Source of the DNA: Candidatus Altimarinota bacterium
GTDB lineage: Bacteria; Patescibacteriota; Gracilibacteria; 1-14-2-50-48-13
DNA length: 64,000 nt
Assembly: GCA_046314355.1 (NCBI GenBank)
Contig: JBKBWQ010000001.1
Span: 800,001-864,000 of the forward strand
Direction: 5' to 3'
Both the position numbers and the translations under genes were made by a program. Below are positions 17,927-24,277 of this stretch, piece after piece. Within the stretch, counting starts at the first letter, position 1. Every line of letters begins with the position of its first letter. A model generated the notes under the pieces. The model was given only the letters and a program-made list of their open reading frames with translations. It was not told the DNA's origin and made no database searches.

Positions 17927-19645
17927 TTATCTCAGATCATAGATAAAAATACTATTTCCAATGGTAGTATGCGGTAGCTGATCAAGATAAGAATAATCCT
18001 CTGCAGTCAGCCCTCTCTGCTTTACCCATTTACTTTGCTCAATCCATACGGGAAATATAGCAAAGATGCCCTGAGGACGTCCCCAGTCTCCATGCCAAGC
18101 TTTGAGAATGCCTTTTTTATCATAAAAGTTCAGAGGGGTTTTTCCCCAATAATCTACGTAAATAGCATCTATGCCCTGCTGCTCTGCCCATACAGAAAGG
18201 CGTTTGAGATTCTGTCCCCAGTCCACATTTGAATCAGAGAGATGTTTATATCCATTCAAAGAACCTCCAGAGAAATCATTGAAATAGGAGAGATAAAATG
18301 GATATGTACTATAAATAGTTACGCACTGAGTCAGAATCAATATACCAATCAGTATATATTTATGAGCATACTCCCATCTGCTTATTATCCAGACTCCGAT
18401 AACAGGAGTAAGTGCGAGCACAGGAGCAATATGACGGATACCAATATTCAGTGTCGACAATAGCGAAAGTAGGAGATACAGACCAGAAAATCCTAGCATC
18501 AAAAGAAGTGCGGTTTCAATTTTTTTCTTTTTCCAGAGCGAGAGACCTAGTATAGCTGCCCCAAGCAAAGTAAGAATCAAAATTGCAGGACTTTCCTTAT
18601 AGAGCCATGCCTTCGGGAAATAGTACCACCACCCCTTTCCCATTGTGCCATACTCTCCATCAAGAAACTGAGTGCCAGTTACCTCACTTCTTTGGATAGA
18701 GCGGTTACCCGCATAATCAAGTCCTGAAAGATAAGAAGGAATTGCCTTAGTAAATGTATAGTCAGAAAAGATAAGCTCCAGCTGTTTGATAGGAGCGGGC
18801 ATCAGAGAAGTATTTACAAAGGATCTCAGCTGAGATATAGGTGTATTAATATTAAAGAATGTATAGACTATATATACACAAAAGGCAGCCACAGAAGCAG
18901 TATTTAGAGTATTTTTAAAGATATTTTTACTTTTTTCTTTATCATACTTATACGTAATAAAAGAAAAGATGAGCAGTATTACAAAAATATAGAGTGTGAG
19001 TAGCACTCCTGAAAATTTTGTAAGCAGTACTCCCCCGAGTCCTAGCCCAAGATACAATGCATTTTTATGAGTAGGATCACGCATAAAAACTGCGGTAAGC
19101 AGAAGACTGATCACAGAGAATAATGCAATCCCCACATCCGTGGTGACATACCTGCTATGAGCAAAAATATTTGGTTCAAAGGCAAGAAAAAATAATGCAA
19201 TGAGAGACCAAGTAGGCGTAAGAAACTTTTTAAATAATACTCCGCAGACAAAAAGAAGCAGTCCATGAAATATGAGCACAGCAAACCTCGTCCAGAATAA
19301 AATATCATCTATATTATTCCCGCTTTCAAAAAGTATTTTATTTCCCTCCTGCCACTGATTCGGCATTCTGAGACCTGGTAGTTTGTAATCGATATCTTGA
19401 AAAAGAAGCGGGATAGCAGAGATCACTTTCACAAGCGGAGGATGCTCTATATTGAGATTATAATTCAGATTCGTAAGCGTGGAGTATCCTGAGACAATAT
19501 GTGCCACTTCATCAATAGTGACACTGTCATCTTTGACACTTGTGATACCTATTATGATAAATAAGGCACAAATAACCGATACTATGATGATAAAATACTC
19601 CTTTACGATACTTCTGATGAATTCAGTTTTCAAAGTAGGTAACAC
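17927..19645 (-). CDS. ArnT/PMT-like (GT-C) membrane glycosyltransferase
   Basis: TIDEVAH, EHPPLVK, AHSRYVTTD, TKFSG, DSNVDWGQ; about 12 TM. Confidence 0.88.
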   Translation of the reverse strand: MLPTLKTEFIRSIVKEYFIIIVSVICALFIIIGITSVKDDSVTIDEVAHIVSGYSTLTNLNYNLNIEHPPLVKVISAIPLLFQDIDYKLPGLRMPNQWQEGNKILFESGNNIDDILFWTRFAVLIFHGLLLFVCGVLFKKFLTPTWSLIALFFLAFEPNIFAHSRYVTTDVGIALFSVISLLLTAVFMRDPTHKNALYLGLGLGGVLLTKFSGVLLTLYIFVILLIFSFITYKYDKEKSKNIFKNTLNTASVAAFCVYIVYTFFNINTPISQLRSFVNTSLMPAPIKQLELIFSDYTFTKAIPSYLSGLDYAGNRSIQRSEVTGTQFLDGEYGTMGKGWWYYFPKAWLYKESPAILILTLLGAAILGLSLWKKKKIETALLLMLGFSGLYLLLSLLSTLNIGIRHIAPVLALTPVIGVWIISRWEYAHKYILIGILILTQCVTIYSTYPFYLSYFNDFSGGSLNGYKHLSDSNVDWGQNLKRLSVWAEQQGIDAIYVDYWGKTPLNFYDKKGILKAWHGDWGRPQGIFAIFPVWIEQSKWVKQRGLTAEDYSYLDQLPHTTIGNSIFIYDLR

Positions 19646-19766
19646 AGTCTTTCAAAAAGAGAAATAAGTGCACCGAGTATAGCACGCTCAAGGAAAAATT
19701 ATACTGAAAATTAAGATATAAGCATTATATCTATTTTATACATTCAATGCTGTTGGATCAGTTAAC

Positions 19767-22313
19767 CTATTCTTTATCGGCAAATACAACTAGCCGTTTA
19801 GAATACTGCTGTTGTTTCTTATCCCATACCCCGTCGCAAGTAATAAGATTCAAGTGCGCCTTACCGTCGCTAGAGCTGAAAATGGCAGCTGCATCATCAG
19901 AAGCACCATAAAGTTTGCTCTCACGCACAATAAATGAAACTATATTCCCTTTCTCATCCTTTACTAAAATCTTATCTCCTGGTTTTAGTTTTTGTAAATC
20001 TGCAAATACACCTCTCACATTATTGATCCAGTTGAGGTGTCCATCCATCACTGCGCTGCCAATATCACCTGGGTATGTTCCAAGTTCATACCAGCCTGCA
20101 TCAGAATAAGACTTTGGAATGTCCATCGCACCGTCTGCTGTCAGCCCTACTTTCTGGACTGCAGCATTAACCGCGATACTTGGGATAATAATATTTACTG
20201 GCAACACCCTTGTTTCAGGCACAACCCCTGTTTTTGGAAGCTTAGGAATAATAACAGGTGAAACAACGATAGGTGCTGGAACTGGAGCAGCGACTGGGGT
20301 GATAGCAGCAGGGACTCCAGGAACTGGAAGTGCAACAACTACAGTAGCTACTGCAATATCTCTGACTCTTATACCATTGCCAGTACCGCTCGCGATAGCA
20401 GTGTTTGTAGTAGTAGTTCTTAGGTATGCTCTACACGTATAGATCCATCTTTCATTCGTATCAAGCTTTGAATCTTTGTTTGTATCTCCAGAAACATATC
20501 TCACAGGGCGACATTTATCATCCGTCAAAGTCACGTTACTAAGTGGGACAGTACCAGTATTATTAATGATTTCTGTATAAGTTGCCCACCCCCCGCCTGA
20601 AGGTAAAGTAAGTGGTCTTGGAATTTTTATTACATGAATAGAAGGAGCCACAATAGGCTCGCCGACTATAACAGTAGCACTGGCTATGTCTACAGTACTG
20701 ATGTTATTTGCCCACCCAGTGGCAACTACTGTATTTGTATGAGTCTCTGTAAGTGTTGTGGTGCATTTATGTACCCAGACTTCCGTCAGATCAAGGATTG
20801 CATTCCCGTTGGTATCTCCTGAGAATAAGGCAATAGGACTGCATGTATCCCCCACTAACGTGATATTATTTACTACTACTGTTCCAATATTACGTAGAGT
20901 GTACGTATATTCTACTGCTCCAGGACCATTAGGTAGAGCAAGAGGACTTGGGGTTTTTACAATATCAATAAGCGGAGGAACTGCAGGTGTAGTAACTGGT
21001 GTACTCACAGGAGGAGTATATCCCCCTCCACCACCGGAAGTGGGAGGGAAAGGAATATCATTATTTGTAATAATACAAAAACGTGCCTCACTCACATTGA
21101 GCGTAACAATACCTAACGCATTACAGTCACCGGAAAATGACTGCGTATAATTAGGGTCAGCCGTTTCTGTCACCGTATATATAGCTGGAGCAAGTGTATT
21201 TGTAATACCTGAGACAACAGGTGCCCCATTGATGAATAATGGGAAATCGGCAATCACTTTAGTTCTGCCGCTATCATTGATCACCACCTTTGTGACTGTA
21301 ATTGTAGAAGGTGCAATATCATTATTTGTAACCGTACATGTCCTATCATTTTCTGATGCAAGAATAATATTTCCAGCCGCATCACAATCTCCGCTATAGG
21401 TCACCGTATACCCAGCAAGTGCATCTTCACTTACCGCGTAGGTACCTGGATCCAAAACATAAGTAGTCCCCAATACATCAACTCCTGCCTGCGGGCTGCC
21501 TGCAACATCAATGCCGCCTGTAGTTACATGCAGTGTCGCATCAGAAGAAACTCCAATACCTGTATTATCATTAATCACTGTCTTGATTACATGAAGCGTT
21601 GCAGTACATGTGGGAACAGTAATAGTATTCGTATCAGTAGTCACAGTACCTGCCCCAAGCGACAATGCTCTACCATTCCAAACTGTATTTGCTCCGATAG
21701 TAATGGCTGTAGCATCATCAATCACAGTTCCAGCAAAAATAGTATTTGCCGCAAGAGTAGTCGCTGCGGTTGGCGTCCAAAATACATCGCAAGCTGATGC
21801 TCCAAGTAGCGTCACAACGGAACCCGCCGTAGACGTAAGTGCTCCTGTCGGTCTAAAAATATAGGTACCCGCACCGCTCAATGTAAGTGGTCCTCCGATA
21901 TCCATAGCACCCGTGCTACAGTAGACTCCAGGTGTATATACTCCAACTGGACCATGAGTTGCATCTGTGGAAAGATCGATAGCTCCAGCAGCAAAAGTAA
22001 AGGTACAAGGTTGAACTCCTAAAGCACCAAGCGCAGTATTTACATCAATACGCGCAGCCGGTGTAGGGGCACCAGGACCATAACTGGTATGAATACCAGC
22101 AGGTACCGTTGCCGGTGGAGTAGTAAATCCAATACCGCCGTCGATCGTTGTACCCGCGGCAACATTCGTATATGTTCCTGCAAGAACGCCGTAAGTCTCA
22201 CCTGTTCCAAGATCAGGAGTCGTAGCTGCATTAGCCACATTTCCTGAGAAACCAAATAATAATGTAAAAGCGAATACGACTACAATCGTATTCTTCCTAA
22301 GGAAATTTATCAT
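19767..22313 (-). CDS. Ice-binding-like (DUF3494) secreted protein with Ig-like repeats, LPKTG motif and fused class F sortase domain
   Basis: Signal peptide; YGVLAG, TPGVYC, YIFR, ACDVFW, FAGTVI, GRAL (DUF3494); two pairs of repeats; LPKTG; sortase motifs AGWY, GSAVMDGH, LNLITC, YSKRLVVFA. Start could be 22343. Confidence 0.87.
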   Translation of the reverse strand: MINFLRKNTIVVVFAFTLLFGFSGNVANAATTPDLGTGETYGVLAGTYTNVAAGTTIDGGIGFTTPPATVPAGIHTSYGPGAPTPAARIDVNTALGALGVQPCTFTFAAGAIDLSTDATHGPVGVYTPGVYCSTGAMDIGGPLTLSGAGTYIFRPTGALTSTAGSVVTLLGASACDVFWTPTAATTLAANTIFAGTVIDDATAITIGANTVWNGRALSLGAGTVTTDTNTITVPTCTATLHVIKTVINDNTGIGVSSDATLHVTTGGIDVAGSPQAGVDVLGTTYVLDPGTYAVSEDALAGYTVTYSGDCDAAGNIILASENDRTCTVTNNDIAPSTITVTKVVINDSGRTKVIADFPLFINGAPVVSGITNTLAPAIYTVTETADPNYTQSFSGDCNALGIVTLNVSEARFCIITNNDIPFPPTSGGGGGYTPPVSTPVTTPAVPPLIDIVKTPSPLALPNGPGAVEYTYTLRNIGTVVVNNITLVGDTCSPIALFSGDTNGNAILDLTEVWVHKCTTTLTETHTNTVVATGWANNISTVDIASATVIVGEPIVAPSIHVIKIPRPLTLPSGGGWATYTEIINNTGTVPLSNVTLTDDKCRPVRYVSGDTNKDSKLDTNERWIYTCRAYLRTTTTNTAIASGTGNGIRVRDIAVATVVVALPVPGVPAAITPVAAPVPAPIVVSPVIIPKLPKTGVVPETRVLPVNIIIPSIAVNAAVQKVGLTADGAMDIPKSYSDAGWYELGTYPGDIGSAVMDGHLNWINNVRGVFADLQKLKPGDKILVKDEKGNIVSFIVRESKLYGASDDAAAIFSSSDGKAHLNLITCDGVWDKKQQQYSKRLVVFADKE

Positions 22314-22573
22314 TATATTTGGGTAACAGTTATATACTGACAATCATATCACGAATACTGCTTTACATGTAAAAAATCTATTGTTGAATTATAAAACTCT
22401 GTTAATTGATTAGGATACATATCCATCAAAAAGTAAATTAATCTCCTAGCTCCTGGTAGGCATAGCGTAATGGATACTCCTAAATCATATCGTAAATAAA
22501 CTTAACTTTTGATAACCTTGATTTTTAGCAGCATTAGAAATATTATTATCTATTATTTTCTGATGACTCTCCT

Positions 22574-23461
22574 ATGAAGACACAACAGATAAAGACTCTT
22601 CTCCTGGACACTTTCTCAGCATGGCAAAAGGATAACGTACCAAGGATGAGTGCTGCCCTTTCCTACTATACAGTATTTTCTCTGGCACCTCTTTTGATCA
22701 TTATCATCTCCGTCGCTGGTATATTCCTGGGACAAGATGCAGCTCAAGGAAATATAGTAGCTCAGATGCAGAGTCTCATAGGACAAAGCGGAGCAACTTT
22801 CATACAGGACATCTTAAAGAACGCTTCCAAGCCTGAGGCAAGCAGTATTGCTGCAGTCATCGGAGTCATCACGCTTGTGCTTGGTGCATCTGGAGTATTT
22901 TCAGAACTGCAGAGTTCTCTCAATACTATCTGGGGAGTAAAGCCTGATCCAAAAAAAGGTATTTGGGGAGCTATCAAGGATAGATTCCTTTCGTTTACTC
23001 TTGTCATCGGTGTCGCCTTTCTCCTGCTGGTATCTCTTTCAGTAGATGCAGTACTGTCTGCTCTCAATGACTATATCGCCTCCCTGCTCTCAAGCTTTGC
23101 AGCTACATATATGATACAAGGATTAAGTGTACTCATATCATTTTTGCTCATCACCGTACTCTTCGGATTGATCTACAAGGTACTGCCTGACCGCAATTTG
23201 AAATGGAGACATGTTATTATCGGAGCACTTGTTACTTCATTTTTATTCACCATTGGTAAATTTCTCATTGGTCTTTACATTGGGAATAGTAATTTTACAG
23301 ATACTTACGGTGCCGCAGGATCTTTGATAGTCATCCTGCTTTGGGTATTCTACGCAAGCTCTATCCTCTTTTTAGGAGCTGAGTTTACAAAGGTGTATGT
23401 ACGGAGTGAGGGTGCAAAGGTGGAAACTACAAAGGGTGCGAGAGTGCGTAAGGCTCAGTAA
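22574..23461 (+). CDS. YihY/virulence factor BrkB family membrane protein
   Basis: AALSYYTVFSLAPLL, LNTIW, YKVLP, YGAAGSLIVILLWVFY. Confidence 0.93.
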   Translation: MKTQQIKTLLLDTFSAWQKDNVPRMSAALSYYTVFSLAPLLIIIISVAGIFLGQDAAQGNIVAQMQSLIGQSGATFIQDILKNASKPEASSIAAVIGVITLVLGASGVFSELQSSLNTIWGVKPDPKKGIWGAIKDRFLSFTLVIGVAFLLLVSLSVDAVLSALNDYIASLLSSFAATYMIQGLSVLISFLLITVLFGLIYKVLPDRNLKWRHVIIGALVTSFLFTIGKFLIGLYIGNSNFTDTYGAAGSLIVILLWVFYASSILFLGAEFTKVYVRSEGAKVETTKGARVRKAQ

Positions 23462-23542: not shown

Positions 23543-24277
23543 ATGCCTGAAGGTCCATCTATCATTATACTAAAAGAAGAACTGCTTCCTTTTAAGGGGA
23601 AGAAAGTCATAGAAGTATCAGGAAACAGTAAACAAGATATCCAGAGAATAAAAGGCAAAAAGATTTTTGATTTTCAAAGCTGGGGAAAGCATACGCTGAT
23701 ACAGTTTCAGGATTTTTTTGTGAAGATTCATCTCCTCATGTTTGGAAGTTATAGAATCAACGAAAGAAAAGAAGAGAGAGAACCAAGACTTTCTCTGAAA
23801 TTTGCAAAGGGTGAAATAAATTTTTATAGCTGTGCAGTGACAATTTTTGAGTGACAAACAAAGGATATTTATAACTGGACTACTGACATTATGTCAGAGA
23901 ACTGGGATCCTGAAGCAGCTTATAAAAAATTAAAATCAATGCCAGATACGCTTGTCTGTGATGCACTGCTGGATCAGAATATTTTTTCAGGAGTGGGCAA
24001 TATTATAAAAAATGAAGTATTGTTTAGAATACGGGTTCATCCTTCAAGTACTATTGGCGCCCTTCCCTCCAGGAAACTTCGAGAACTCATCGAAGATGCG
24101 CATACGTATAGTTTTTTATTCCTTGAATGGAAAAAAGCATACACCCTTAAAAAACATTGGCAGGTACATACCAAGAAAGAATGTCCAAGAGATCATGAAA
24201 AAGTGAAGAAAGAATATCTTGGTAAGACTCACAGAAGAACCTTTTTTTGTGAGAAATGCCAAATACTCTATCTCTAA
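23543..24277 (+). CDS. Fpg/Nei family DNA glycosylase, interrupted by one in-frame TGA (23852-23854)
   Basis: MPEGP N-terminus, WGKH, HLLMFG; H2TH LLDQNIFSGVGNIIKNE; C-terminal Zn finger. The two ORFs share a frame, giving about 244 aa with readthrough. Confidence 0.88.

Follow-up and report, generated by a model that had tools for sequence, protein, structure and literature searches.

The 64,000-nucleotide stretch of Candidatus Altimarinota bacterium DNA analysed here (contig JBKBWQ010000001.1, positions 800,001 to 864,000; hereafter the window, with coordinates counted from its first base) carries on its minus strand a genuine and unbroken gene with which a Patescibacteria (Candidate Phyla Radiation, CPR) bacterium encodes an exported surface protein, and in this protein an adhesin, an LPKTG sortase motif and a class-F-like sortase domain are joined in a single polypeptide of 848 amino acids (aa). 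The reading we favour, and hold to be somewhat better than even, is that this is a natural adhesin-LPxTG-sortase chain whose own sortase would cut LPKT/G, in cis or in trans, and so bond the adhesin to an amine. Which parts the protein has, in what order they stand, how well they are conserved and where they came from is documented below; that it processes itself and is ligated to the wall is what we infer.

The gene lies in an open frame at 19767-22343 (-) that would give 858 aa from a TTG at 22343 and gives 848 aa from the ATG at 22313, the start backed by homologues in an alignment of 13 proteins. The product opens with a signal peptide whose 19-residue Kyte-Doolittle mean (KD19) is 1.96 at residues 9-27 and whose Ala29 is nearly invariant in that alignment, followed by an ice-binding-like head that passes the Pfam threshold for Ice_binding (PF11999, residues 49-232, 64.4 bits against a cut-off of 28.7). 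An earlier note made from the sequence alone had suggested that the repeats behind the head could be CnaB-like isopeptide domains, and a CnaB/SpaA-like nature has some support: SpaA_2 scores 34.5 bits against a cut-off of 25, with Cna_B falling below at 14.8 against 22.3, and the pattern VxK ... xE(T/D) ... TNxD is found in both SpaA_2-like repeats and in the consensus. Two further immunoglobulin-like (Ig) domains resemble DUF7507, which scores just below its threshold (26.4 against 27) and whose profile, PF24346, is also precomputed for the fused protein and its homologues. The highest KD19 of the protein, 2.16 at residues 653-671, falls on the last Ig strand and the Pro-rich linker, a segment that is also present in the adhesins of relatives that encode adhesin and sortase as two genes (split adhesins).

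The earlier note had placed adhesin, LPKTG and a class F sortase in one polypeptide, and the intact 848-aa open reading frame (ORF) with its Pfam domains agrees with this description in its details. Residues 692-696 map exactly to the 20226-20240 given for LPKTG, strand 1 of the sortase (PVNIIIP) begins 8 residues further on where about 10 had been proposed, and the triad read as DGH, LITC and SKR is complete and conserved as His759 (codon 20037-20039), Cys826 (19836-19838) and Arg840 (19794-19796); across alignments of 13 and 80 rows His759 and Cys826 are invariant, and Arg840 is invariant or nearly so. Downstream of LPKTG the KD19 reaches at most 1.46 and the chain runs for 152 residues more to end in ...VVFADKE, so that neither a transmembrane (TM) helix nor a basic tail follows the motif, which was likewise part of the description. 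One of the three defining features of a tripartite LPXTG cell-wall sorting signal is therefore present, the motif, with the hydrophobic domain and the basic tail absent. The N-terminal membrane anchor expected of a class F sortase is absent as well, there being no TM-like segment between LPKTG and the domain.

Sequence profiles and structural modelling together place the fused domain in the sortase superfamily as a predicted class-F-like member. It passes the Pfam Sortase threshold (PF04203, residues 708-847) with 71.9 bits against a cut-off of 26.6. An AlphaFold 2 (AF2) model of residues 670-848 has a mean predicted local distance difference test (pLDDT) score of 92.9, and shows the eight-stranded beta-barrel of a sortase; sortase structures from classes A, C, E and F match it with tied Z scores of 15-17, with 127-132 residues aligned at a root-mean-square deviation of 2.1-2.9 (VIA); the Corynebacterium diphtheriae SrtF structure 5uus, at Z 16.0, is tied with the other classes. 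A sequence search of the PDB returned distant sortases only (E 0.001 or weaker).

In relatives the two halves are usually separate. A scan taking one genome per species gave 472 pattern matches. A relative is encoded at 457 of them, and the analysis here uses 80 loci retained from the scan. By record label these are mostly Patescibacteria (Uhrbacteria, Peregrinibacteria/Peribacteria, Paceibacterota, Saccharibacteria, Kaiserbacteria, Yanofskybacteria, Moraniibacteriota and others), with several labelled uncultured Gammaproteobacteria and one Candidatus Udaeobacter. The 80 loci hold 86 sortase-domain frames: 70 preceded, within 130 residues, by a TM-like segment, 8 fused (defined as having an xPx[TA]G motif in front and no TM helix) and 8 others. 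For 55 of the 78 unfused sortases, the adjoining upstream frame on the same strand (counted if at least 150 aa long) has at its C-terminus xPx[TA]G followed by a hydrophobic stretch and then a basic tail; the remaining 23 include contig ends and loci with another gene upstream. The ancestral unit is therefore a pair of genes, one for an adhesin that ends in a canonical sorting signal and one for the membrane-anchored sortase that belongs to it, and such a pair, an LPxTG adhesin followed by a TM-anchored sortase, is the usual state in Patescibacteria. Among the 150 best representatives at 50% identity, 148 of which were scored, 113 have a TM-like segment, 7 are fused by the same rule and 28 are other, the last including fragments and SLH and PG-binding forms, and a few more fused proteins are visible by eye.

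The membrane anchor is replaceable in this subfamily, since in some relatives Pfam finds an SLH (L019) or PG_binding_1 (L064) domain ahead of the sortase in place of the TM helix; judged by their domains, such sortases would be tethered to the wall rather than to the membrane. The Pfam-confirmed cases lie at L019:7578-8912(+) and L064:7879-8760(+), and L032, L036, L009(-) and L060(-) look similar by eye. As a separate observation, seven loci (L003, L023, L029, L036, L052, L060 and L067) have a small conserved gene just upstream of the sortase, in the adhesin's place, that appears cupin-like by eye (...VVVVPGT.HNF.NTG...KIYTVYAPPNH.DGR.H...).

The domain-architecture search that the earlier note had called for finds that the fusion recurs. 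With residues 660-848 as query, among proteins of 466-1484 aa, 12 further long proteins were identified; all 12 have the sortase domain, and precomputed Pfam annotation gives 10 of them Ice_binding as well. LP[KN]TG is kept directly ahead of the sortase in 10 of the 12, which are 38-70% identical: the alignment shows PKLP[KN]TG immediately before the domain in P0002-P0011, in P0012 LPNTG stands farther upstream and a hydrophobic remnant comes after it, and P0013 has a different N-terminal domain and lacks the motif. The fused state appears, from this conservation, to be under selection. P0078 (2166 aa, 19 stretches), considered as a further sortase, is actually a cadherin-repeat protein and was rejected. 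In three loci with fused adhesin-sortase genes (L008, L009 and L010), the fused gene is immediately preceded by a frame of about 390-430 aa; that of L009 is an Ice_binding protein ending in PG_binding_1 (Pfam), the C-terminal tails of the other two are similar by eye, and such proteins would be a third anchoring solution in these loci.

The junction itself points to how the two genes were joined. Among 41 relatives searched, G014 has an adhesin that shares 63% identity over residues 7-718, and the C-terminus of this adhesin reads IPKLPNTG-FPPEGENI-PWNIVFLSSILVASVSFYVVLRKKA, the TM segment starting with PWNIVFL and the tail ending in LRKKA. On the tree, the TM-anchored sortases that come closest are L005 and L069, whose strand 1 starts PVNIKIPSI, and the junction in the window is IPKLPKTG-VVPETRVL-PVNIIIPSIAV, where VVPETRVL aligns with FPPEGENI of the split adhesin. 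From this comparison it follows that the fused chain retains the motif and 8-residue spacer of the sorting signal and switches to the sortase at a P-x-N-I heptad that is common to the TM start of the sorting signal (PWNI...) and to strand 1 of the sortase (PVNI...). The W-heptad occurs in 32 of the 67 sorting signals of the loci, 27 of which have it 7-9 residues past the Gly. A deletion between the similar PWNI and PVNI heptads would yield an in-frame fusion and lose both TM segments together. Set against the split genes, the alignments show what was apparently removed: from the adhesin the C-terminal TM helix and basic tail, from between the genes the intergenic DNA, and from the sortase its tail at the N-terminus together with the TM helix and the linker.

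The distance from the Gly to strand 1 differs among fused proteins, with 8-13 residues in the group of the window and 21-55 elsewhere, the longer linkers being either a decayed TM segment of the sorting signal (e.g., P0070, P0051, P0122 and P0012) or the polar pre-strand linker of the sortase (e.g., P0008 and P0011). On a quick and poorly resolved tree, built by maximum likelihood from 151 columns of 96 sortase domains, the 16 fused rows are scattered and need 12 changes, of which the starred branches force at least 2. The approximately unbiased (AU) test, run after the unconstrained tree was known, rejects the best tree that groups the fused rows (log-likelihood difference 95.7, p-AU 0.0017). 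The phylogeny indicates that the fusion arose more than once.

The genome assembly (1.69 Mb, 98% complete) contains two sortase domains, the fused one and a 359-aa TM-anchored enzyme at G000:C1 356908-357987 that is class C/D/E-like by score. The fused ORF is the only Ice_binding (DUF3494) gene in the genome and its only sortase of this subfamily. A screen of stop-to-stop frames by simple hydropathy, which can miss cases, gave no further LPxTG placed as a sorting signal in the genome: frames of at least 80 aa hold 53 LPxT[GASN] matches, with a TM-like tail in 0 of the 12 near a C-terminus, and 1301 frames of at least 150 aa hold 10 LPxTG. Three genes for penicillin-binding protein (PBP) transpeptidases are present, and a peptidoglycan wall is therefore made. 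No match to the fused protein was found in the three genomes of the same family that were searched. Outside the window, three minus-strand ORFs of G000:C1 with start-side ends near 650277, 613298 and 611988 close with VPQTGPE, TPANGPE or APQSGPE, then a TM helix and finally a basic tail. This resembles a sorting signal of a non-LPxTG type, [VAT]Px[TSN]GPE, and the three proteins are likely clients of the second sortase.

In the favoured reading, the protein would be exported through the Sec pathway and lose its signal peptide, after which Cys826 would attack the Thr695-Gly696 bond of its own chain (cis) or of a neighbouring copy (trans). The adhesin, about 666 residues, would form a thioester with Cys826 before being handed to an amine, most likely that of a peptidoglycan stem peptide, and the 153-residue sortase fragment starting at Gly696 would leave or stay active on further copies. 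The outcome would be an adhesin anchored to the wall with neither enzyme nor substrate tethered to the membrane. The data agree equally well with copies processing one another in trans as with processing in cis, access in cis being uncertain because the spacer is only 8 residues long. In the AF2 model, the blocks of residues 670-699 have pLDDT values of 70, 80 and 73, and the segment before the sortase is therefore not modelled as disordered. Predicted as a complex, residues 660-704 and 705-848 gave a median interaction score (ipSAE) of 0.33 (0.40, 0.33 and 0.26) against 0.00 for the best control, with a partner pLDDT of at least 49 and contact agreement between runs of at least 90%, which is a weak hint; when the method was calibrated, 116 of 157 solved complexes and 2 of 215 mismatches attained the mark, but scores of 0.60 or below came from just 18 of the 157 complexes and from both passing mismatches. 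Because the sole sequencing run with this DNA is labelled hot springs metagenome, ice binding is an unlikely function for the head, and an adhesive or structural role is more likely.

Several points weigh against this reading. Everything past export, the acceptor amine included, is a step that we infer. The spacer from Gly696 to strand 1 (8 residues here, 5-12 in the group of the window) is short, and LPKTG may fail to reach its own active site; the pass in the complex prediction may reflect mere chain continuity, because the partner residues directly precede the domain. An anchorless protein could also diffuse off before it meets an acceptor. The class assignment is qualified in that NF033748 (class_F_sortase, NCBIfam), although the best class by far with 114.6 bits against at most 20.6 for the others, remains under its curated cut-off of 166; because of this, and of the tie among classes in the fold match, the domain is termed class-F-like. 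As to expression, no RNA run is among the runs listed as containing the DNA. A more far-reaching version of the same idea, to which we give only a small chance, is a membrane-independent, self-ligating adhesin with the sortase as leaving group, which would bond to any suitable amine it met, whether in its own wall or in the peptidoglycan or S-layer of the host to which an epibiotic CPR bacterium attaches, and which would have evolved repeatedly by deletion between PWNI and PVNI heptads.

It is also conceivable, but in our judgement unlikely, that the chain stays uncut and that the adhesin and its stalk place a soluble sortase at the surface or at a partner cell, where it would act on other proteins, with LPKTG persisting as a relic or as a pseudo-substrate lid by which the active site is regulated. 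In class C sortases a lid is formed by a segment N-terminal to the core, and the modelled core aligns with these enzymes at Z 15-17; the 8-residue spacer may hold the motif near the domain without productive cleavage, and relatives bear other localising modules, SLH and PG_binding_1. The genome screen, however, turned up no other LPxTG sorting substrate for such an enzyme, and the motif is a genuine sorting signal in the split relatives. Exact LP[KN]TG is moreover kept across independent fusions whose linkers vary, which is more than a relic needs.

A self-polymerising fibre, in which Thr695 would be joined pilin-style to an Ig-domain lysine of the next copy, each subunit bringing its own single-use enzyme, would account for the SpaA_2 and DUF11-like domains, which are typical of sortase-assembled pilins, and for processing in trans between copies, the likelier geometry given the 8-residue spacer. 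We regard it as improbable, since the split relatives consist of one adhesin with an ordinary wall-sorting signal and one sortase, with no second pilin gene, no pilin-motif lysine was identified, and the best-scoring class of the sortase is F and not C.

Cleavage of LPKTG by the second, membrane-anchored sortase, which would make the fused domain a discarded C-terminal pro-domain, is more doubtful still, even though a sortase with a TM helix is present in the genome. The three sorting-signal proteins carry another motif, [VAT]Px[TSN]GPE, which suggests that this enzyme has a different specificity; without a TM helix the fused substrate would not be kept at the membrane for it, and conservation of His, Cys and Arg across homologues only 38-70% identical is unexpected for a domain that is discarded. 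Finally, an assembly artefact or a recently broken, non-functional gene has next to nothing to recommend it beyond the single run with the DNA, probably its source: a 23-kb Logan contig of that run, a separate assembly of the same reads and hence not independent sampling, spans 19500-22600 with 0 differences at a depth of 19.8, the frame is open through 848 codons, the same architecture occurs in further assemblies, and the gene is the sole copy of both functions in a 98%-complete genome. The earlier note had allowed that the fusion could be unique, the result of a deletion or misassembly that brought two genes together; two normally separate genes have indeed been joined, but a one-off event or an assembly product is rejected in view of the 10 of 12 homologues, the multiple assemblies and the identical Logan contig. 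The coordinates of the fused gene and its parts are collected in Table 1.

Table 1. Parts of the fused adhesin-sortase gene, in window coordinates.
Feature	Position	Strand	Basis or remark
Whole 848-aa ORF (P0001)	19770..22313	-	ORF list; starts of relatives match the ATG at 22313
Signal peptide, residues 1-29	22227..22313	-	Basic n-region, hydrophobic core, probable cleavage site ANA/A
Ice-binding-like (DUF3494) beta-solenoid head, residues 49-232	21618..22169	-	Pfam PF11999, 64.4 bits
SpaA_2 prealbumin-like Ig domain 1 (VIK...VSE...TNND), residues 237-328	21330..21605	-	Pfam PF19403, 34.5 bits, 2 stretches
SpaA_2-like Ig domain 2 (VTK...TET...TNND), about residues 336-430	21024..21308	-	Second SpaA_2 stretch; limits by eye
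DUF7507/DUF11-like Ig domain 1, about residues 457-547	20673..20945	-	First of two DUF7507 stretches; approximate limits
DUF7507/DUF11-like Ig domain 2, residues 556-644	20382..20648	-	Pfam PF24346, 26.4 bits (cut-off 27)
Pro/Ala/Val-rich linker, residues 645-691	20241..20381	-	Pro-rich yet hydrophobic by Kyte-Doolittle (2.16)
LPKTG sortase motif, residues 692-696	20226..20240	-	Pro690, Pro693 and Gly696 nearly invariant, flanking linkers variable
Spacer VVPETRVL, residues 697-704	20202..20225	-	Homologous to sorting-signal spacer of split adhesins
Predicted class-F-like sortase catalytic domain, residues 705-848	19770..20201	-	Pfam, NCBIfam, AF2, fold match, triad
Stop codon TAG of fused gene	19767-19769	-	

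The genes around the fused gene were set aside as partners because they have no homologue in the 80 loci; these are a PMT-like glycosyltransferase, a BrkB-like protein, a kinase and a 78-aa ORF. The first, a 572-aa PMT/PMT_2-like (GT39-type) membrane glycosyltransferase at 17927-19645 (-), shares the strand of the fused gene and begins 121 bases downstream of it. At 23543-24277 (+) lies an Fpg/Nei-like gene, named by eye, that is interrupted by one in-frame TGA at 23852-23854, its pieces being an N-terminal 103-aa ORF, 12 codons and, without a change of frame, a 128-aa ORF; a pseudogene, a sequence error or local recoding may account for the interruption. Recoding of TGA as a general source of odd gene structures was rejected: translation table 11 yields 1287 frames of at least 150 aa (506,174 aa in total), and the fused gene ends in TAG.

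Sortases are described as common in CPR bacteria in passages of two papers (PMC6744442, PMC4736985). In excerpts of the literature on DUF3494 with sortase, on sortases of Patescibacteria/CPR, on class F sortases and on self-cleaving fusions, no description of a natural substrate-sortase fusion was found. Sortase biology presumes a separate enzyme and substrate, both held at the membrane and thus meeting each other and lipid II, and an anchorless form that appears to have been invented repeatedly and kept by selection points to sorting able to work without the membrane step. The fusion makes cis versus trans action, single versus multiple turnover and the identity of the acceptor amine directly testable, and it offers a concrete handle on how attachment-dependent CPR bacteria fix adhesins on their surface.

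Compared with the split Patescibacteria pair (L006-L082, G014), the fused protein has the same adhesin domains, motif context (IPKLP[KN]TG) and signal peptide, with an adhesin 63% identical to that of G014 and a sortase of the same subfamily up to 66% identical to that of L005. It differs in lacking the TM helix and basic tail of the adhesin and the N-terminal TM helix and linker of the sortase, and in being one chain with 8 residues between motif and sortase core. Canonical LPXTG wall sorting by membrane-anchored sortases, of which Staphylococcus aureus SrtA with protein A is an example, shares with it the LPxTG motif, the His/Cys/Arg transpeptidase fold, the signal peptide and a peptidoglycan-bearing, monoderm-type cell, whereas the protein in the window has neither a tripartite signal nor an anchor on enzyme or substrate, and supplies the two 1:1 in one polypeptide.

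Class C sortases and C. diphtheriae SrtA have an N-terminal lid over the active site. Structures of class C pilin sortases and of this SrtA were among those matched (PDB 3tbe, 2w1j and 6bwe), and the segment before the core could likewise lie on or near the active site; unlike these lids, which are of the DPW type, it carries a motif that is a true substrate, and it forms the C-terminal end of a 690-residue adhesin. In C-terminal autoprocessing of the Hedgehog and intein type, a Cys of the domain forms a (thio)ester at the junction, passes the N-terminal module to a nucleophile and leaves as a by-product. Only the logic is alike here, and fold and chemistry are unrelated.

The order of parts in the fused protein (cargo, LPXTG, linker, sortase) is the same as in the engineered STEPL fusion, where the cargo is released by transfer to an amine nucleophile. 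That construct, reportedly described by Warden-Rothman in 2013, is said to join target, LPXTG, linker and SrtA through a long and flexible designed linker. The protein in the window, by contrast, is natural, exported and putatively class-F-like, and has an 8-residue natural spacer and a predicted activity. Engineered sortase-LPXTG fusions self-cleave according to passages on a SrtA-LPXTG-target design (Mao) and on BISOP (PMC2901362), and STEPL is put to use in a methods passage of PMC11237011. The fused adhesin-sortase would be a natural counterpart, from a hot-spring organism, of these engineered self-cleaving and self-ligating sortase tags.

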